A stretch of 64,000 nucleotides of DNA from the NCBI GenBank assembly GCA_036504095.1, contig DASXVS010000024.1, forward strand, positions 145,257-209,256. The letters run 5' to 3'. Made by a program: the position numbers and the translations under genes. The notes under the pieces are model-generated. The model saw only the letters and a program-made list of their open reading frames with translations. It ran no database searches and had not been told where the DNA came from. Shown piece after piece: positions 23,493 through 62,560 of this stretch; position 1 is the stretch's first letter, and each line of letters opens with the position of its first letter. This DNA is from Armatimonadota bacterium (GTDB lineage: Bacteria > Armatimonadota > DTGP01 > JAKQQT01).

Positions 23493-23819
23493 CTACACGT
23501 TGTCTGCAATCGACACATGCGTGACTGCCCCATCGGCGTCAGGCTTCTTGGGCCGGATGACGATCTCAACATCCTGGTCGAGCGCATTCAAGCACTGGAA
23601 CAGCCGTTCAAGCGTAAAGCCTTTCAGCCTCCCACGCGTGATGTCCGAGACGTTCGGCTGTGTAAGGCCAGTTCGACGGGCCGCCTGCGCTTGGGTCAAA
23701 CCCAAGGAGGCGATGACCTCGTGAATACGATAGGCAACGCGCGCCTTGGCCAGGCGCTCCTCTGGTTCCGGCAGACCGAGATCGGCGAAAACGTTACCGC
23801 TTCCTGTTGTGAACTCCAT
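23493..23819 (-). CDS. higA: HigA-like XRE-family HTH antitoxin
   Basis: HTH LTQAQAARRTGLTQPNVSDI. Immediately downstream of the toxin gene with a 1-nt overlap. Confidence 0.7.
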   Translation of the reverse strand: MEFTTGSGNVFADLGLPEPEERLAKARVAYRIHEVIASLGLTQAQAARRTGLTQPNVSDITRGRLKGFTLERLFQCLNALDQDVEIVIRPKKPDADGAVTHVSIADNV

Positions 23820-24208
23820 CAGACCCTACCCCCAAAGTGCTCAGAGTGGTGCTTCGCGGCGTCGGCCAGTCGTTGTCGGATCAGTGCGAGGTCGTGCTGG
23901 CTTGTCTTGCGCCCAACACGGCTCTTCTTCTGGAACGCGTGCAACACGTAGATCGCATCAGCGAATCTCACCGTGAACACGGTCCGGTATGTGTCCCCAT
24001 CAAAGTCGTCCCGGATCTCGAGGACGCTCGCTCCACCGAACCCGCGCAACGGCTTGACGTGAGGCGCCGTGCCACCCTCCTGGACGATCTGAAGGGCATA
24101 GCCGAAGGTATCCTTCACGTCCTCGGGCATCCGGCGCAGGTCGTCGAGGGGCGAGCCAAGCCAAATCAGCGGTCGGTCTGCATCCATTCCGTGTAGTGCA
24201 TCGCTCAA
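23819..24208 (-). CDS. higB: RelE/ParE-superfamily toxin (HigB/Gp49-like)
   Basis: KPL.GFGG.SVLEIR...YRTVF...IYVLHAFQKKS is the Gp49/HigB signature. Alternative start at internal MDADRP (24187). Confidence 0.7.
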   Translation of the reverse strand: MSDALHGMDADRPLIWLGSPLDDLRRMPEDVKDTFGYALQIVQEGGTAPHVKPLRGFGGASVLEIRDDFDGDTYRTVFTVRFADAIYVLHAFQKKSRVGRKTSQHDLALIRQRLADAAKHHSEHFGGRV

Positions 24209-45766: not shown

Positions 45767-46267
45767 ATGAACAACGTCAGTTCGGGAAAAGCGATGGTAG
45801 GGGGCTTCGTCGGGACAGCGGTGATGACGGTTATGCTCTACGCCGCGAATATGATGGGCCTGGTCCAGATGGACCTTGCCGGGATGGTCGGATCGATGAT
45901 GAACGGCGGGCACCACCCGCCGATGATGAGCGGGATATGGTGGTTGGGTATGATGGTGCACTTCGTGAATGGCTCCATCGTCTTCCCGCTCGTCTACACG
46001 CACTTCGTTCACCGTATACTTCCCGGTGCTCCCGTTGTGCGCGGTCTGTTGTGGGGCACGGCGCTGTGGCTAGGCATGGAGACGATGGCCTTCCCCATGG
46101 TGGGGCTGGGCTTCTTCGGCACCAAGACCCCGAGTCCGATGATGATGGTTGCCGGGCCCATGATGTTACACATAGTCTACGGCGCCATCCTCGGCGCGAT
46201 TGCCGGCGCGCCGGCAAAGGACCACGGCGGCGAGTGGTCGAGTGGCGCGCCGATGTTGGCACACTGA
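45767..46267 (+). CDS. hypothetical Met/Gly-rich integral membrane protein
   Basis: AAGGAG RBS before ATG 45767. About 4 hydrophobic segments. The longer ORF from 45671 is unlikely. Confidence 0.5.
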   Translation: MNNVSSGKAMVGGFVGTAVMTVMLYAANMMGLVQMDLAGMVGSMMNGGHHPPMMSGIWWLGMMVHFVNGSIVFPLVYTHFVHRILPGAPVVRGLLWGTALWLGMETMAFPMVGLGFFGTKTPSPMMMVAGPMMLHIVYGAILGAIAGAPAKDHGGEWSSGAPMLAH

Positions 46268-46351
46268 GAGCGATTGACCAAGGATGCGGATGCTGGGGGC
46301 GAGATGCTTGTTGGCCGTTGGCCAGATGCGCCTCGCCCCCTGATCGCGCCT

Positions 46352-46921
46352 TCAGCGAGCCGCTTTCCGCACAGCATCGAGCACCTCTTCCGCCGCAGCG
46401 CGGATCCTGTAGTCCTCATTTTCATAGGCGAATGAAATGCGCCGCTTGCGGTCAATAACAAACGTGCCCGGCTTCAGTACCCCGTTCGTGTAGACCCCGG
46501 CGTACTTCCGTGCGGCTTCGCCGTTCCGGTCCGACAGGAAGGTGATGAAGTCAGCCTTCTCCCTGTCCTGCATCTGCTTCAGGGCGGTCCCGTCCTCATT
46601 CGAGATGGCGATAACGGCGGCTCCCGACTTCTGAAACTCTTGTTTGAGCCGGCCCAACTGGGCCAGTTGCGCATGGCAGTACGGTCACCACACACCGCGA
46701 TAGAACACAAGGACGATGGGTTTCCTGCCCATGATCCTCCCGATGTCCACCTTACGCCCGTCCTCATCCGGCAGCGAGAAGGCTGCTGCCTTCCGGCCGG
46801 TGAGGCTCTTTGGCGCCGAATCTGTCCCCGCCGGTTTCTGAGTATACCCCGGCTGCGCTGCCAGCAGCAATAGAACCGGAACCGCCATACCCGGTGGCTT
46901 GATGTGATCTCGCATCCCCAT
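46352..46921 (-). CDS. secreted thioredoxin-fold redoxin (AhpC/TSA-redoxin family); candidate selenoprotein with an in-frame TGA (fwd 46685-46687) in a UxxC motif
   Basis: One continuous frame: ...GRKPIVLVFYRGVW-[TGA]-PYCHAQLAQLGRLKQEF... is the canonical WCxxC position. AAGGAGG RBS before MGMRD plus a signal peptide. The ORF track splits it into 46352..46657 and 46685..47023. Confidence 0.6.
46649..46666 (-). promoter_or_regulatory. SECIS-like hairpin 19-36 nt downstream of the in-frame UGA
   Basis: mRNA cuggccc-aguu-gggccgg. 7-bp stem including one G.U pair. GU in the apical loop. Confidence 0.4.
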
Positions 46922-47035
46922 ACAACCTCCTTTGATTGCCGTCCGAGGCCTGTCACGTTCGGGGACCAATGTCGGTGATGAGACACAATCCCCAAGCATG
47001 GTTACACGCGGCGGCGGGTACATTATTCACGTTTC

Positions 47036-47069
47036 TTTTTTGAACAATCGGCCCGAGCGAGCCTGTAAG
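47036..47069 (+). promoter_or_regulatory. candidate ECF-sigma-dependent promoter TTTTGAACAAT-N14-CTGTAAG
   Basis: Shares TTTTGAACAAT-N14-CTGTA with the promoter in front of the ECF sigma gene at 47989. Confidence 0.5.
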
Positions 47070-47147
47070 ACCCTGTGAAAGCACGAGCGGCACGAGCCGC
47101 CAAGTCCCGGCCCGCTAGATGCGTGGGCCGAACGAAAGGAAACCGAG

Positions 47148-47927
47148 ATGAGACATATACCATTCCTGCTCCGAGCCGGCGCAGCCGTCGTCGCAGTATC
47201 CGCCCTCCAGGCCGCATCCGCATCAGCCGATCCCGGCGGGACCACGCCGACTCCGACAGGGTTCAACAAATACCTGGTCTACATGGCTGAATCCAGCGCC
47301 GCTCCAGGGGAATCCACCCTCGGCATGGATCCCGCCACGGTGAACTACTTCCAAAGCCATGTGATGGGCCGGACCCCGGCGCAGATCGCGGCCGACAAGA
47401 CCGCAGCGAAGGAGTTCTTCTTCGATCGCTTCGGCCTCGACTTCCGAAGCACCCAGGCGGACGCCATGGGCCAGGAGATGATCCCGGGCGCCATGTTCAC
47501 CGGCTTCTATCAGAGTCCGCAAGTGAACTACCGCGCTTACACCATCTCCGGTGAATCCGTTCCGGCGAGCGGTTGGGAGGTGCGGGATGGTGGCTGGGCC
47601 GTAATGCTGACTCAGGAAACGGTGGTCCACGGCGCGTTTGGCGGGCCGGACGGAAAGACGCTGCCAGCCGGTGCGATGTTGGTCTACGGGAACTACAACA
47701 TTCGAGTGGAGAAGCCCGGGAACCAATCCTCGCGACGGCCTCACCCGCAACCTGAACCGATCGTGATGCATTACCAGTCCTTCACTCCCATCGTGGCGGA
47801 CGCCAACGGGAATATCGGGTTCATCTGCGACCTCTTCCACCCGGTCTGGGGAGTGGGACGCGCGCGGGGTGTGGTGCAGGGCGGCTCGATTCGCAGCGTA
47901 CTCAGCTTCCCTCCCGGCCGTTCTTGA
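47148..47927 (+). CDS. secreted hypothetical protein
   Basis: Signal peptide AVVAVSALQAASASA. No recognisable motifs. Confidence 0.5.
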   Translation: MRHIPFLLRAGAAVVAVSALQAASASADPGGTTPTPTGFNKYLVYMAESSAAPGESTLGMDPATVNYFQSHVMGRTPAQIAADKTAAKEFFFDRFGLDFRSTQADAMGQEMIPGAMFTGFYQSPQVNYRAYTISGESVPASGWEVRDGGWAVMLTQETVVHGAFGGPDGKTLPAGAMLVYGNYNIRVEKPGNQSSRRPHPQPEPIVMHYQSFTPIVADANGNIGFICDLFHPVWGVGRARGVVQGGSIRSVLSFPPGRS

Positions 47928-47988
47928 TCGACGATGGCGGGGAGGCGCGTAGCCGTCTCCCCGCCAATCGGAGAACATCCTCAGTTAA

Positions 47989-48020
47989 TTTTGAACAATT
48001 TCCCTGGCGCACACTGTACA
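47989..48020 (+). promoter_or_regulatory. candidate autoregulated ECF promoter TTTTGAACAAT-N14-CTGTACA
   Basis: -35-like TGAACA and -10-like CTGTA with the same spacing as at 47036. Confidence 0.5.
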
Positions 48021-48063
48021 TTGAATGAATGCCGCTGGGAGAACGTGCGCGGCGAACAAACGA

Positions 48064-48636
48064 ATGATCTTTCAAGCTCCAGATGAAGTGCTGGCCCGCC
48101 GCGCGGCGGAAGGTGAGCAGAGCTGTTTCGAGAAGCTCATTGCCCGCCACCGCGACCGGGTCTACCGCATCTGCTATCGATGCGCGGGGAACTCGGAGGA
48201 TGCCGAGGACTGGGCCCAGGAGTGTTTCATACGCGGGTACACTCAGCTAGGCTATTATGACGCGTCCCGGCCGTTTGCGCCGTGGTTTTACAGGGTGGTC
48301 TCGAATGTCTGTATCAACCTGGCACATTCTAGGAACCGGTGGCGGGCAACTGTGGACCTGGGACTGCCGGACGACGGCGGCGAAGTGGCGGCTGAAGGAA
48401 CCGATCCAGCGGCAGCCATCCTCTCGATCGAGACACGGCGCGCAGTGCTCGAAGCCGTCGAGTCACTGGACCCGAAACTGCGACAGGTTGTGATCTTGCG
48501 CGTGCTGGACGGTATGTCGTTCAAGGAGCTTGGTGAGACCTTCGGGGTACCGCTCGCCACAACTTCGACCTGGTTACGGCGGGCGCTGGTGCAGGTGAGA
48601 CAACAACTTGCCCGGAAAGGCGTGGGGATAGGCTGA
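48064..48636 (+). CDS. ECF-type RNA polymerase sigma factor
   Basis: Region 2 FEKLIARHRDRVYRICYRCAGNSEDAEDWAQECF. Region 4 MSFKELGETFGVPLATTSTWLRRAL. The ORF may begin at 48025. Confidence 0.8.
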   Translation: MIFQAPDEVLARRAAEGEQSCFEKLIARHRDRVYRICYRCAGNSEDAEDWAQECFIRGYTQLGYYDASRPFAPWFYRVVSNVCINLAHSRNRWRATVDLGLPDDGGEVAAEGTDPAAAILSIETRRAVLEAVESLDPKLRQVVILRVLDGMSFKELGETFGVPLATTSTWLRRALVQVRQQLARKGVGIG

Positions 48637-48914
48637 TGGTAACGTGCGGCTGGGTGCAAAACCGAATACTGGCCTACTTATCCGACGAACTCGGCGTGTC
48701 CGAATCCAGCAAGTTGTACCGGCACGTCCAGAAGTGCCTCCGGTGCCAGAAGGCGATGGAACTCCTCTCCGAGACCCAGGACGTGGCAGGCGCAACCCTC
48801 ATGACCAACGTCCGAGCTCCGGCAGCGATCGACGCCCGTATCATGGCGGCCATCTCCGGCCGCCGGCCGGACCCGGTGCGGCGTTTCCGCTTCTGGAACT
48901 GGTGGAGAAAATGA
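48636..48914 (+). CDS. zinc-finger (zf-HC2, HxxxCxxC) anti-sigma factor, short cytoplasmic type
   Basis: HVQKCLRC motif. Start overlaps the sigma stop (TGATG). Confidence 0.65.
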   Translation: MVTCGWVQNRILAYLSDELGVSESSKLYRHVQKCLRCQKAMELLSETQDVAGATLMTNVRAPAAIDARIMAAISGRRPDPVRRFRFWNWWRK

Positions 48915-48999
48915 GCGCATCGCCGCGAAAGCTGGCCGCTCCCGAAGCCGGGTGGGAGCCGCACGGAGTTGACCCGGCAATGAGCCTCAGGAGGCAAAT

Positions 49000-49437
49000 A
49001 TGAAACGGTTCGCGATGCTCGTGTTGAGCGCGGCTATGGCCGCAGGAATAACGGGTTCGGCTTCGGCCGCGCCGAAGGACCAGCAGTCCACCCAGCGCAA
49101 GGTGGCGCAGGGTGGCACGATAAAAGCCATGCCTATGGGCGGAATGAAGGGCATGAAGGGCGGCATGGGCATGATGATGACCCCGGACGCCAGGAAGCTG
49201 CGCAAGCATGTAGATGCCGTCAAGGTTAAGGCGGCGAAGAACGGCCGATACGATTGCTGCATCGGCCCTTCGTGTGACTTCTGTGCGACGCATATGGGCT
49301 CGTGTTCCTGTGCGAAGGGCGTCGCCAGTGGGATGGGCAATTGCCGGGAGTGCAAGGGTGGCTGGGAAGCCGGTCAGGGCGATGTTCCTGGCAAGACGAA
49401 GGCAGACGTCCGCAAGATGAAGACCGTGGGAATGTGA
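49000..49437 (+). CDS. small secreted Met/Gly-rich and Cys-rich (9 Cys) protein, putative metal-binding
   Basis: AGGAGG RBS. Signal peptide. AMPMGGMKGMKGGMGMMM and CCIGPSCDFCATHMGSCSCAKG...NCRECKGGW. Confidence 0.6.
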   Translation: MKRFAMLVLSAAMAAGITGSASAAPKDQQSTQRKVAQGGTIKAMPMGGMKGMKGGMGMMMTPDARKLRKHVDAVKVKAAKNGRYDCCIGPSCDFCATHMGSCSCAKGVASGMGNCRECKGGWEAGQGDVPGKTKADVRKMKTVGM

Positions 49438-57706: not shown

Positions 57707-59131
57707 CTATCCTCGCGTGATCGAGTCCGCCACGGTGCCGTCCGGGTTTACCAGCGTGATGATCATCGGCATCTGGCCGGCGGCGTGGGTGGAGCACGAG
57801 AGGCACGGATCGTAGCACCGGATCACCGCTTCTACGCGGTTCAGCATCCCCTCGTGGAGGTTCTTGCCATCCACGAAGCGCTGAGCGACCTGCAGGACGC
57901 CCTTGTTCATCGCCAGGTTGTTGTGACCGGTGGCGATGATGAGGTTGGCCTTGGTGATCAGGCCGTCGTCGTCGATTTCGTAGTCGTGGATCAGCGTGCC
58001 GCGCGGGGCTTCGGAAACGCCGATGCCGTGGCTGGCGTTCGGCGCGGCCTTAGCGCGAACGTGCGTATTCAGGATGTCCGTCTGGGTGAGCAACTCCTCG
58101 ATCTTCTCCAGCGCGTAGAGGATCTCGATGAGGCGCGCGGTGTGGTAGTGGAACGAGCTCAGGATCGAGCCCGAAGCCATTGCACGGAACTCGTGGAGAG
58201 CGGCGTCCGCTTCCGGCGTGCCGCACTTGTCCACGGTGTTCAATCGGGCAAGCGGGCCGACGCGGTAGAGACCGTACGGGTAGCCCAGCGGCTTGTAGTA
58301 CGGCATCTTCAGGTAGGTCCACTCCTCGGCGGCTTCCCCGATGATGTCCGCATAGTCCGCGGGGGCGACGCCGTCCGCAACGATCTTGCGGTCCGAGTCC
58401 ACCACGCGGAACTTGCCGTCGTAATGCTCCAGTTCGCCCTCTTTGCCCACGATGCTCATAAACAGCGACGGGAAGTTGGCGAAAGAGTCCAGTTCGTCGG
58501 CGAACTTGGGCGCGGTGCGGCGGAACAGGTCCAGCGCCAGGCGTGTGGTGTCCTTGGCTTCCGGCAGTCCGGCGAGGATGCGATCGCGTTCCTCAACGGT
58601 CAGCGGGTCGTTGACGCCGCCGGGGACGATCCACGCCGGGTGGATTTTGCGGCCGCCCAGCGTTTCGATGATCTCCTGGCCGTATTTGCGCAGGCGGATG
58701 CCGGCCAGCGCCAGGTCCGGGAACTTCTCGGCGAGGCCGAAGACGTTTCGGGTGGCGGGGTCGGAATCCATTCCCAACAGGAAGTCCGGCGAGGAGAGGT
58801 GGAAGAACGACAGCGCGTGGCTTTGCGTGATCTGTCCAAGGTTCATCAAGCGGCGCAGATTGGCGCCGGTTTCCGGTACCTTCACCGCCAGCAGGCCGTC
58901 GCAGGCCTTGGCGGAGGCTACCAGGTGACTCACCGGGCAGATTCCGCATATCCTCGCCATCAGGGAGGGCATTTCGTAGAAGGGGCGGCCCTCGGCGAAT
59001 TTTTCGAAACCGCGTACTTGCGTTACGTGGAACCTGGCGTCCGATACGCGTCCATCGTCACCCAGGGTCAGCGTAATTTTCGCGTGACCCTCAATGCGGG
59101 TGACGGGGTCTATGGTTATTGTTTGTGCCAT
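57707..59131 (-). CDS. hoxH: bidirectional NAD(P)-linked [NiFe] hydrogenase large subunit (group 3d)
   Basis: N-terminal [10 protein letters not shown] and C-terminal [10 protein letters not shown] Ni-binding motifs. N-terminus very close to the HoxH consensus. Confidence 0.85.
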
Positions 59132-59144
59132 TATTTTCCTTCCG

Positions 59145-59666
59145 TCATCCGAACTTGGGCGCCGGCGCGTCTTCGCGCTTCTGGCCGGCCAGCAGGTTGC
59201 TGATCGTATCGAAGATCAGGTCCGCGGGCGGCGGGCACCCCGGCACGTAGACGTCCACGTTCACGAACTCGTGGATCGGTCTTGATTTCCTCAGCAGCGT
59301 GGGAACGGGTCCGCCGCCCAGCGGGATGACCCCGTCGCCGTAGATGGCGTGGAGCATCCTGTTCGGTTCGAACTGGTTTCGCATGCTGGGCACGTTTGAC
59401 GTTACGCTGCAATCGCCCAGCGCCACCAGGATTTTGGAGCGCTCGCGGATTTTGAGGATCTTCTCCTCATCTTCGTCGCTGCTCACAGCGCCTTCCACCA
59501 GGGCGACGTCAACGTTCTCCGGGAACTCCTTCACGTCCGCGATGGGACTGTGGACCAACTGGATGAGCGGCGCGATGTCCAGCAGGCGCTCGTCCAAGTC
59601 CAGAAAGGACATATGGCAACCGGAGCAGCCATCCAGCCACACCGTTGCAACACGGGTTTTGCTCAC
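59145..59666 (-). CDS. hoxY: [NiFe] hydrogenase small subunit
   Basis: [11 protein letters not shown]...GCPP Fe-S ligands. Confidence 0.85.
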
Positions 59667-60376
59667 TTCTTCCCCTCCCGCATTTGCGTCAGGTAAGGCA
59701 GGAATGCCTTGCGTTTCACCATTTCACCCACGGACCGGCCCTTTTCGAAGAGCGCGCCGGTGGGGCATACGTTCACGCACTTGCCGCAGCTAGTACACGA
59801 CTCGGATTTGCCCCATGGCTCGTTCATGTCCGTGATGACCTTGGCGTCTATGCCGCGGCCCATGACGTCCCACGTGTGCGCGCCTTCGATTTCGTCACAA
59901 GCGCGCACGCATCGGGTGCAGAGGATGCAGCGGTTGTGGTCCAGCACGAAGCGTTCGTGCGAGGCGTCCACCGGCAGCGTCGGGTAGCGGTATGGCACCC
60001 GCATGTGGTCCACGCCGAGCCGCATGGCCATGGCCTGCAGTTCGCAGTGACCGTTGGACACGCAGACGGAGCAGATGTGATTGCGCTCGCTGAACATCAG
60101 CTCCACGATCGTCATGCGATAGTGCAGCAGACGCTCTGAGTCGGTGGTCACGCTCATGCCTTCGCTCACTTTCGTGACGCAGGCGGGCAGGAGCTTCGGG
60201 ATCCCTTTGACCTCGACCATGCAGAGGCGGCACGCGCCTACGTCGCAGAGGCCTTCGAGGTGGCAAAGGGTCGGTATTTTAACGTTCGCTTCCTTCGCGG
60301 CATCGAGGATGGTATAGTCCTCGCGCGCGCTGACGTCTCGACCGTCAATCGTCAGGGTTATGACTTTGGCAGGCAT
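59663..60376 (-). CDS. hoxU: hydrogenase diaphorase subunit HoxU (NuoG-like 2Fe-2S/4Fe-4S)
   Basis: [15 protein letters not shown], CxxCxxCxxxC clusters. Confidence 0.8.
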
Positions 60377-62007
60377 CAGGCCACCTCCGCGTGGATTTTA
60401 CTGGGCGATTTCATTTTGCAGACGCCGGCCGGGCACACGTGATCCCTGATGTGCGCGAGGTACTCGTCGCGGAAATAGCGCAGCGTGCTGAGAACGGGAT
60501 TCGGGGAAGTCTGGCCAAGGCCGCAGAGGCTAGAGAAGCGCACGACTTCGCAGAGTTCCTCCAGGAGGTCGAGGTCCTTCATAGACGCCCGGCCCTGGGT
60601 GATCTTTTCCAGGAGTTCGTGCATCTGCATGGTACCGACCCGGCAGGGTACGCACTTTCCACAGGATTCCGTCATACAGAACTCCATGAAGTAGCGCGCC
60701 ACGTCCACCATGCACGAGGTCTCGTCCATCACGATCATGCCGCCGGACCCCATAATCGAGCCCGCCTGCGCCAATGATTCGTAGGTGACAGCCATGTCCA
60801 GGAACTGTTCCGGGATACAGCCGCCGGAGGGTCCGCCCGTTTGAACGGCCTTGAATTTGCGGCCGTCCGGAATTCCCCCGCCGATATCGAAGATGATGTC
60901 GCGGAGGACGGTGCCCATCGGCACTTCGATGAGTCCGGTGTTCTGCACCCGTCCGGCCAGCGCGAAGACCTTGGTGCCCTTGCTCTTCTCGGTGCCGATT
61001 CCGGAGAACCACTCGCCGCCGTTACGTATGATGGGCGCCACGTTGGCGAAGGTCTCCACGTTATTGATGAGCGTGGGGCAGTCCCAGAGGCCGGACGCCG
61101 CCGGGAACGGCGGGCGGGGCCGCGGGCTGCCGCGGTTGCCTTCGATGCTGGAGATGAGCGCGGTTTCCTCGCCGCACACGAATGCGCCGGCGCCGAGGCG
61201 GATATCAACCGTGAAGCGGAACGAGGACCCGCAGATGTTGCTGCCCAGGAACCCCGCGCGCTCCGCCTGGCGGATCGCGTTCTTCAGGCGCTTGACCGCC
61301 AGCGGGTACTCCGCGCGGCAGTAAACGTAACCGCTGTCCGCGCCGACGGCGTAGCCGGCGATGGCCATGCCCTCGAGGACGCGGAACGGATCGCTTTCGA
61401 GGACGCTGCGGTCCATGAACGCGCCGGGGTCGCCCTCGTCCGCGTTGCAGATTACGTACTTGCGGGCGCCATCGGCCTTGGCCACGGTGCCCCATTTGAG
61501 GCCCGAGGGATAGCCGCCGCCTCCACGGCCCCGGAGGCCGCTGGTGACCATCTCGGAGATGACCTCGGACGGCTCCATTTCGCCAACCGCCTTGGCCAGG
61601 GCGTCATAGCCGCCCACCGCCGTGTAATCGTCCAGTTTGTCCGGGTCGACTTCACCGGAGTTCTCGAGGACGATCTTCACCTGTCGGGTGAAGAAGGACT
61701 GCTCGGCGTCACACTCAAGGCGCTTGACCGGCTTCTTGCCGATGCTTTCCACGATCTCGCCGGCGTCTTCCGGCACCATCGCCTGGTAGAGGATCCCGTC
61801 CGGGCTCACCCGGAGGAGCGGACCCGCCATGCAAAGGCCGAGACAGCCGACGCCGCGCACCGCAACCCGTTCCGCGAGACCGCGGGCGTCTATTTCCTTC
61901 TCCAGTGCTTCCTTTACGAGGTCGCCCTGGCAGGAGAGACAGCCGGCGGCGACGCAGATGTCCAGTGTTGTCTGGGCCTGCGTTCCGTTAGTGGTTTCTT
62001 CAGGCAT
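60376..62007 (-). CDS. hoxF: hydrogenase diaphorase subunit HoxF (NuoF-like, NAD/FMN binding)
   Basis: [23 protein letters not shown] and N-terminal thioredoxin-like Cys pairs. Confidence 0.85.
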
Positions 62008-62560
62008 TTGCCACCTCCGCTCCCGGCGATTCGAGCCAGTTCGTGATGCGTGCCTTCATATCGTTGTCGCCGATCCGTCCGACGACCTCGCCGTCCATCA
62101 CAACGGCGGGAGCGAGTCCGCAGGAGCCGAGGCAGCGGGCGCTGAGCAGCGACAGCTTGCCGTCTGCCGTGGTCTCGCCGGTGGAGATTCCGGCAACTTC
62201 GTTCACCGCGGCAACGAGTGTCGGCGCGCCCTTGATGTAGCAGGCGGTGCCCATGCAAACAACGCATGTGTGCTCGCCCTGCGGCTTCAGCGTGAAGAAA
62301 TGGTAGAACGTCGCCACGCCGTACACTTTGCTGAGCGGAACGCCCAGAGCGTGGGCTACCTGCTTCAGCGAGTCGTCATCCAGGTATCCATAGACTTCCT
62401 GAACGGTGTGCAGCGTCTCAATGAGGGCTTGCGACGAATGGCCGTGGCGGCGCATGGTAGCGCTTACGAGTTTCCACCGGCGGTCGTCGGAACCAGGCGC
62501 GCCTGGGGGCGCGGGGCCGGCTTTGCTTCCCTGAACCGTGGTTTGATCGCTTTGCATCAA
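62000..62560 (-). CDS. hoxE: hydrogenase diaphorase subunit HoxE (NuoE-like 2Fe-2S)
   Basis: [12 protein letters not shown]...CLGSCGLAP. Confidence 0.8.

Follow-up and report, generated by a model that had tools for sequence, protein, structure and literature searches.

An in-frame UGA in an Armatimonadota redoxin gene is probably a selenocysteine codon

Does an in-frame TGA that divides a redoxin reading frame end a short protein, or is it read as selenocysteine (Sec, U)? This question is raised by a locus on the reverse strand of a 64,000-nt stretch of DNA, here called the window, from an Armatimonadota bacterium (assembly GCA_036504095.1, contig DASXVS010000024.1, positions 145,257 to 209,256). 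An earlier note, made from the sequence of the window, had proposed that the open reading frames (ORFs) 46685..47023 and 46352..46657 lie in one frame with a single TGA between them, that together they encode a redoxin of the AhpC/TSA type preceded by a strong ribosome-binding site, and that automatic annotation would show the locus as two fragments. All of this was borne out. Translation from the ATG at 46921, the start that the JGI gene caller chose as well, gives MGMRDHIKPPGMAVPVLLLLAAQPGYTQKPAG...KPIVLVFYRGVW-[TGA]-PYCHAQLAQLGRLKQEF..., with KPIVLVFYRGVW-[TGA]-PYCHAQLAQLGRL around the codon itself. When U was written as C for the profile searches, Pfam AhpC-TSA (PF00578) matched across the TGA over residues 42-163 (92.8 bits, cut-off 26; E = 1.9e-26), as did Redoxin (PF08534; 73.8 bits, cut-off 26.6; E = 1.6e-20). 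The JGI annotation of the same locus consists of a 78-aa gene without a Pfam match and a 101-aa gene that matches AhpC-TSA. The AGGAGG that serves ATG 46921 also lies 10 nt upstream of a second ATG at 46915. From the comparisons given below we conclude that the TGA almost certainly encodes Sec.

The first line of evidence is the residue that relatives carry at the position of the TGA. In 10 full-length homologues with Cys (P0001-P0010, 50-56% identical) the sequence FYRGVWCPFC corresponds to FYRGVW-TGA-PYC in the window; the TGA is thus paired with the first Cys of WCxxC, the position that the earlier note had assigned to it. The three closest database relatives are C-terminal fragments starting with MAQLGQ, and on their contigs the same split is found (FYRGVW-stop-PFCHAQMAQLGQ, FYRGNW-stop-PYCHTQMAQLGQ and FYRGVW-stop-PHCQRQMAQLGQ). 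The closest related loci (L001, L002 and L003/L004, 61-67% identical and from independent metagenomes) have TGA at the same column. A survey of the family, in which one genome per GTDB species was scanned and loci fetched earlier were included, gave the motif in 80 fetched loci. Among the resulting 83 occurrences of the motif, the window included, the CxxC column is TGA in 45 (the window and 44 fetched loci) and TGY (Y, pyrimidine) in 38, and no orthologue with a genuine stop here and a separate downstream start was seen. At least five phyla are represented among the TGA forms: Armatimonadota (Armatimonadaceae, Chthonomonadales and Fimbriimonadia), Rokubacteria/Methylomirabilota, Acidobacteriota, Actinomycetota (Rubrobacteraceae) and Anaerolineae. 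The nearest relatives of the window redoxin are all from Armatimonadota metagenome-assembled genomes (MAGs), with a best match of 54% identity in the GTDB representative collection. The DAHP synthase of the window points to the same phylum: its best named hit, at 82% identity, is from Armatimonadota, and Chthonomonadaceae and Chthonomonadales come next.

Among the TGA forms the sequence that flanks the TGA is conserved on both sides. The ratio of nonsynonymous to synonymous substitution rates (dN/dS) between the window and its TGA-bearing relatives was ∼0.1-0.4 both upstream and downstream of the codon, at saturated dS (>1), which indicates that both halves have been kept as coding sequence. 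TGA is also the stop codon of 14 of the 20 neighbouring genes and of the redoxin gene itself. In a rough neighbour-joining tree, calculated with no support values, TGA forms occur in every major branch of Armatimonadota and Cys forms are nested among them, which hints at an ancestral Sec state with repeated replacement of Sec by Cys in this phylum.

Some 25 of the fetched loci come from Rokubacteria/Methylomirabilota (within L022-L084, e.g. L025 around 3196). They read FYRGYW-TGA-PFC, followed by the hairpin GCUCCAA-GGKC-UUGGAGC, and standard gene callers would split all of these genes. The members that were translated, for example L025 and (of a different clade) L058, carry several hydrophobic helices in an N-terminal segment that is fused to the redoxin domain. 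A different arrangement was seen in a Rubrobacteraceae MAG (L043), where two paralogues lie 2.2 kb apart, around 3115 and 5361, one with W-TGA-PYC and the other with W-A-PYC; the latter has Ala at the Sec/Cys column and keeps just the Cys that corresponds to the peroxidatic one in peroxiredoxins.

We then asked whether the RNA downstream of the UGA resembles a bacterial selenocysteine insertion sequence (bSECIS). The 7-bp stem-loop with GU in its loop, which the earlier note had placed 19-36 nt after the UGA, is indeed present there (Table 1). The published bSECIS model has an upper stem of 4-16 bp capped by a loop of 3-9 nt, a G in loop position 1 or 2 that is usually followed by G or U, a UGA-to-loop spacing of 16-37 nt and a minimum free energy (MFE) of no more than -7.5 kcal/mol (PMC13188914, Fig. 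2A). The window agrees with all four constraints: its 4-nt loop AGUU closes a stem of 7 bp, the G is second and is followed by U (G30 and U31, counted from the U of UGA), the loop begins at 46659 after a distance of 25 nt, and the MFE of the 38-nt segment is -13.8 kcal/mol. It resembles the E. coli fdhF SECIS and the bSECISearch consensus in being an in-ORF hairpin just 3' of the UGA with a small apical loop that contains G and then U; it differs from the fdhF element in that the two share no sequence similarity and the window hairpin has no bulged U.

The comparison of TGA forms with Cys forms is what gives this hairpin its significance, rather than its own folding. For the segment +13..+50 the mean MFE was -13.1 kcal/mol in TGA forms versus -7.1 kcal/mol in Cys forms (Mann-Whitney p = 9e-9), and the z-scores were -1.5 versus -0.34 (p = 1e-6). 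We also scored the best local hairpin of each form and counted those that had an uninterrupted stem of 5 bp or more and a loop starting at +22..+32 from the U of UGA. Of the 43 distinct TGA forms 35 had such a hairpin, as against 2 of the 38 Cys forms (Fisher p = 1e-12). G occurs within the first three loop positions in 38 of the 43 TGA forms, which is a looser rule than the published limit to loop positions 1 and 2. A conserved structure in homologous loci, which the earlier note had asked for, was therefore found: its position is kept, its stem sequence is not, and it is rare in Cys forms. The stems vary by clade. The window clade has CUGGCCC/GGGCCGG and UGGCCC/GGGYCA with loop AGUU, Chthonomonadales have CCAACUG/CAGUUGG with loop GGU, Fimbriimonadia have CCAGCUC/GAGCUGG and CCAGUUC/GAACUGG, also with loop GGU, and Rokubacteria have GCUCCAA/UUGGAGC with loop GGGC, GGUC or GGAC. 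Between L016 and L017/18 the Fimbriimonadia stems show a compensatory change from C-G to U-A. In addition, the Leu codon UUG makes up 8% of Leu codons locally, yet it is present in the hairpin of all eight closest TGA forms. A shorter hairpin at +7..+21 (46667..46681 on the reverse strand of the window; UGC...GCA) was considered as a part of the SECIS and rejected, as Cys forms have it too; it is formed by the UGC codon of the second Cys and the following GCA/CAG (e.g. UUGCA-AUA-UGCAA) and is a by-product of conserved C-x-x-Q coding.

Table 1. Positions of the features of the proposed selenoprotein gene in the window
Feature	Position	Strand	Remarks
Complete selenoprotein gene (proposed)	46352..46921	-	189 codons and stop; AhpC/TSA-Redoxin, putatively exported, redox centre U79-P-Y-C82
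Shine-Dalgarno AGGAGG	46926..46931	-	4 nt upstream of ATG 46921; read from the sequence
Putative N-terminal export signal MGMRDHIKPPGMAVPVLLLLAAQPGYT	46841..46921	-	Sequence reading; similar signals in homologues
In-frame UGA, codon 79, proposed Sec	46685..46687	-	N-terminal residue of UxxC; aligned with the first Cys of WCPFC
UGC, Cys82, proposed resolving partner in UxxC	46676..46678	-	Invariant in the family; equivalent to the peroxidatic Cys of peroxiredoxins
bSECIS-type hairpin CUGGCCC/AGUU/GGGCCGG	46649..46666	-	7-bp stem; folding and comparison with relatives
True stop codon TGA	46352..46354	-	Homologues finish at the matching place

Several results weigh against the reading of the UGA as Sec. 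The search for Sec machinery covered the readable part of the 230,899-bp contig Ga0376481_000103 of JGI metagenome 3300035523, to which the window belongs (record positions 1-74914, 75 kb, window included), and selA, selB and selD were all absent from the JGI Pfam annotations of these 75 kb. ARAGORN detected no tRNA-Sec in the window, in the remaining readable contig or in 51 other fetched loci. A protein with AIRS/AIRS_C domains beside HypD was tried as a candidate SelD and rejected, because it scored 440 bits as HypE and 34 bits as SelD. The window contains no other TGA-split gene with coding-like composition or a redox motif, i.e. no second selenoprotein candidate, and no neighbouring gene is conserved across 20 Armatimonadota and metagenome loci, so that no partner is indicated. 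When compared with dinucleotide shuffles, the window hairpin alone does not stand out (66-nt fold, z = -0.01, 63% GC), and Rfam gave no relevant match, either for the whole window at gathering thresholds or for 46560..46760 at E up to 10. Moreover, the window can form another hairpin, of 6 bp (CAACUG-GCC-CAGUUG, 46669..46655), whose register matches that of the Chthonomonadales and Fimbriimonadia hairpins, and either stem might be the one that SelB would bind; this alternative has no G-U in its loop and is mismatched in L001-L003. As for the phylum as a whole, Armatimonadota have been reported to contain Sec-type [NiFeSe] hydrogenases, and selABCD are found in ∼90% of Sec-type genomes (PMC13582414).

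Could the UGA be a sense codon for something other than Sec? The TGA and the hairpin would fit Cys as well as they fit Sec. A SelC*-type tRNA (tRNA-ReC) delivered by SelB might decode the UGA wholly or partly as Cys and so produce a CxxC redoxin by recoding, perhaps switching with the supply of selenium. Such tRNAs are described as reading UGA as Cys given a SECIS, and in Armatimonadota, the phylum from which the window comes, all 5 of the 5 genomes with UXXU-type hydrogenases are reported to have tRNA-ReC-like genes in addition to canonical SelC (PMC13582414). We nevertheless consider this quite unlikely, because the TGA and the SECIS have been kept over five phyla though TGY is a single mutation away, which is best explained by an advantage of Sec. 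The 75 kb examined contain no tRNA of any kind, and tRNA-ReC is found in ∼56% of UXXU genomes as opposed to ∼2.3% of other Sec-type genomes (PMC13582414). A facultative switch, in which SelB would deliver either Sec-tRNA(Sec) or Cys-charged tRNA-ReC depending on selenium supply and one gene would yield a UxxC or a CxxC enzyme, also appears unlikely. General reassignment or leakiness of TGA (e.g. to Trp or Gly), for which there is precedent in some uncultured bacteria, is harder still to reconcile with the data: TGA ends most of the neighbouring genes where their homologues end, no other gene of the window needs read-through, and the aligned residue is Cys, not Trp or Gly. An error of sequencing or assembly is no better an explanation, since independent assemblies show the same TGA, and we regard reassignment and error together as extremely improbable.

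If the UGA is instead a true stop, the locus would be either a pseudogene or a pair of small genes. A recent nonsense mutation of an ordinary CxxC redoxin gene would need a single transition or transversion from TGC or TGT; in its favour, the automatic annotation shows a broken locus and no Sec machinery was seen nearby. Against this, the TGA is shared by 45 sequences that include the four closest relatives of the window, the downstream part has a dN/dS of ∼0.26-0.43 (dS saturated) and keeps all residues that are invariant in the family, and a position-specific hairpin co-occurs with the TGA; a pseudogene is therefore very unlikely. We judge it equally improbable that translation stops at the TGA and restarts downstream to give a signal-bearing 78-aa peptide and a 101-aa C-terminal fragment. 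Gene callers do give just such fragments (JGI; P0011-P0013), and six codons past the TGA relatives have an ATG (MAQLGQ). The window, however, has CTG in place of this ATG, no Shine-Dalgarno sequence precedes the downstream half, and the TTG start selected by the caller lies inside the hairpin loop. Neither fragment would form a full thioredoxin fold, given the extent of the Pfam domain; the signal peptide, strand β1 and the first redox residue would be missing from the 101-aa part; and in every case the two parts lie next to each other in one frame and are collinear with the single-chain homologues. Thus, the pairing with Cys, the recurrence of the TGA, purifying selection, stop codon usage and the lack of an independent downstream start led us to discount a pseudogene, two genes, a changed code and an assembly error, and to retain Sec as the probable meaning of the UGA.

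What kind of protein would this gene encode? Searched against the Protein Data Bank, the family profile had its best matches among peroxiredoxins of the BCP/PrxQ/AhpE types (2ywn, E = 7e-18), followed by ResA-type oxidoreductases. In the profile alignments with 2ywn and 2cx3 the Thr of the peroxiredoxin (Prx) TxxC motif corresponds to the Sec/Cys column and the peroxidatic Cys to Cys82, and the invariant Pro151 (KPGTFVID) is aligned with the peroxiredoxin Arg (KRAVFVID). Of the three residues that characterize catalytic peroxiredoxins (Thr, peroxidatic Cys and Arg) only the Cys is kept. The structural reading was taken from the AlphaFold (AF2) model of the Cys homologue P0007 (pLDDT 88.4), not from the window protein. 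In this model C70 directly precedes helix 71-82 and P143 directly precedes strand 144-148, both residues being invariant, which is the arrangement of ResA/TlpA-like proteins (C/UxxC at the N-terminus of helix α1 and Pro before strand β3). A Foldseek search with the model again found BCP/PrxQ/AhpE proteins as the best matches (target-normalised TM 0.8-0.9), and ResA matched as well. The replacement of the Prx Thr by Sec and of the Prx Arg by a Pro of the thioredoxin type favours a thiol-disulfide oxidoreductase over a peroxidase. As judged from the alignments and the model, the protein is therefore more likely a thioredoxin-like thiol-disulfide (selenenylsulfide) oxidoreductase of the cell envelope than a classical peroxidase.

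The assignment to the envelope comes from the N-terminus, which in our reading of the sequence consists of a basic n-region, MGMRDHIK, and a hydrophobic stretch, AVPVLLLLAA, and would putatively direct export of the protein. Homologues have a lipobox (VVGC, LTAC, LIGC or VSAC) or a hydrophobic signal at the same site; Rokubacteria relatives have several transmembrane helices at the N-terminus rather than a lipobox.

Is this a new kind of selenoprotein? The earlier note had regarded Sec-containing redoxins and Prx-like proteins as a known class, and the literature agrees. A 2026 review counts 'Prx-like thiol:disulfide oxidoreductase' (PF00578, UxxC/UxxU) as a predicted family of high confidence and has an entry for 'Redoxin family protein' (PF08534, UxxC) too, and the Global Ocean Sampling (GOS) survey contained 225 'Prx-like 1' sequences (pfam00578, UxxC). 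The window gene shares with these UxxC selenoproteins (Prx-like 1 of the GOS and Sargasso Sea surveys, and Redoxin) the Pfam domains, the UxxC motif, an in-ORF SECIS and many Cys homologues, and they were predicted by the same logic of Cys/Sec pairs. Its likeness to the published representatives WP_010940744.1 and HEU0032618.1 is one of domain and motif, by description. The window clade differs in being putatively exported, often of the lipoprotein type, and in occurring in Armatimonadota. Overall, the sequence evidence fits membership of the window gene in this already known class of bacterial selenoproteins.

Other families resemble the window protein in part. Its best NCBIfam match is the SelL-related redox protein NF040769 (SelL_rel_redox), which likewise combines a Prx-like fold with a CxxC-type motif in the corresponding position; at 58.3 bits against a cut-off of 120, with 40-72 bits for eight other TGA forms, the window protein is not a member. 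Eukaryotic selenoprotein L (SelL), after which that family is named, has UxxU, not UxxC. The closest solved sequences and folds are those of BCP/PrxQ and AhpE peroxiredoxins (2ywn, 2cx3, 3hjp and 1xxu), in which Cys82 corresponds to the peroxidatic Cys; in the window family, by contrast, the Prx Thr is replaced by Sec/Cys and the Prx Arg by the invariant Pro. Known Sec-peroxiredoxins have TxxU, with Sec at the peroxidatic position (2026 review), whereas the Sec proposed here lies three residues earlier. With ResA, TlpA and DsbE (CcmG) the family shares the N-terminal export or anchor signal, the WCxxC-type motif at helix α1 and the Pro before β3, and the matches in sequence and fold are significant; these proteins, though, use Cys. 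The NCBIfam scores remained far below the cut-offs for ResA (41.6 versus 170), DsbE (29.7 versus 123) and TlpA (19.6 versus 230), and no NCBIfam model reached its cut-off for the window clade.

Taken as a whole, we put the probability at roughly 85% that the locus is one intact Armatimonadota gene for an exported Prx-like protein with a Sec79-Pro-Tyr-Cys82 centre that acts as an oxidoreductase in the envelope. By analogy with the established bacterial pathway, SelB carrying Sec-tRNA(Sec) would bind the apical part of the hairpin at 46666..46649 while the UGA is in the ribosomal A site, and Sec would be inserted in place of termination. After synthesis the protein would be exported by its N-terminal signal. 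The mature form, of ∼160 residues, would adopt a thioredoxin fold with Sec79-Pro-Tyr-Cys82 as the active site, and the alignments and the model of the Cys homologue would place Sec79 at the N-terminus of helix α1, where oxidoreductases with a thioredoxin fold have their nucleophilic Cys. Sec79 might then be the attacking nucleophile and alternate between the selenolate and an Se-S bond with Cys82, in a role that may be akin to that of ResA or TlpA.

The annotation as two fragments is not peculiar to the window. It also affects dozens of homologues in MAGs of Armatimonadota, Rokubacteria/Methylomirabilota, Acidobacteriota, Rubrobacteraceae and Anaerolineae, and this recurrent splitting means that the selenoproteomes of soil and freshwater phyla are undercounted. 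For Armatimonadota, a putatively exported and often lipid-anchored UxxC redoxin would add to the still small evidence of selenium use. No concept is changed by it, as catalogues have listed Prx-like selenoproteins with UxxC and a SECIS hairpin inside the ORF since 2004-2008.

Finally, we looked at the surroundings of the gene. The redoxin gene is monocistronic and lies between a convergent DUF6789 gene and a divergent cluster. A scan of 46100..47300 for promoter and terminator consensus sequences gave nothing, and there is no cytochrome c maturation or CcdA/DsbD gene nearby. The convergent gene (45767..46267, forward strand) encodes an unusually Met-rich DUF6789 membrane protein; ∼85 bp separate the two stop codons, and the pairing is not conserved in related loci. 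The divergent cluster (47148..49437, forward strand) has four genes, which encode a secreted hypothetical protein of 259 aa (47148..47927), an extracytoplasmic function (ECF) sigma factor (48025..48636), a 92-aa anti-sigma factor of the zf-HC2 type (48636..48914) and a secreted protein of 145 aa (49000..49437) with the Met-rich stretch MGGMKGMKGGMGMMM and the Cys-rich stretch CCIGPSCDFCATHMGSCSCAKG...CRECKGGW. The cluster has the look of a module for metals (copper?) or envelope stress. Among the compared loci the ECF sigma/anti-sigma pair is shared only with L074 (1268..3549, forward strand), from the Chthonomonadales MAG contig JBBRDM010000005.1. There, one strand carries an operon for an ECF sigma factor 51% identical to that of the window, an anti-sigma factor of the zf-HC2 type and a Prx-like redoxin of the Cys form (246 aa, with a signal peptide). 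The association between this sigma factor and a Prx-like redoxin is thus a recurrent one in the phylum.

Farther away, on the reverse strand at 57707..62455, the window encodes a bidirectional NAD-linked [NiFe] hydrogenase comprising HoxH (57707..59131), HoxY, HoxU, HoxF (60376..62007) and a HoxE-like 2Fe-2S protein; HoxH is complete and has no in-frame TGA. The genes hypD and hypE are outside the window, ∼3-5 kb upstream of where it starts (L089 1..1898, just past position 1 of the window). At 23493..24187, also on the reverse strand, a gene for a Gp49 protein (HigB-like toxin, 122 aa) adjoins one for an antitoxin-like HTH_37/HTH_3 protein of 108 aa, and the two are probably a toxin-antitoxin pair.

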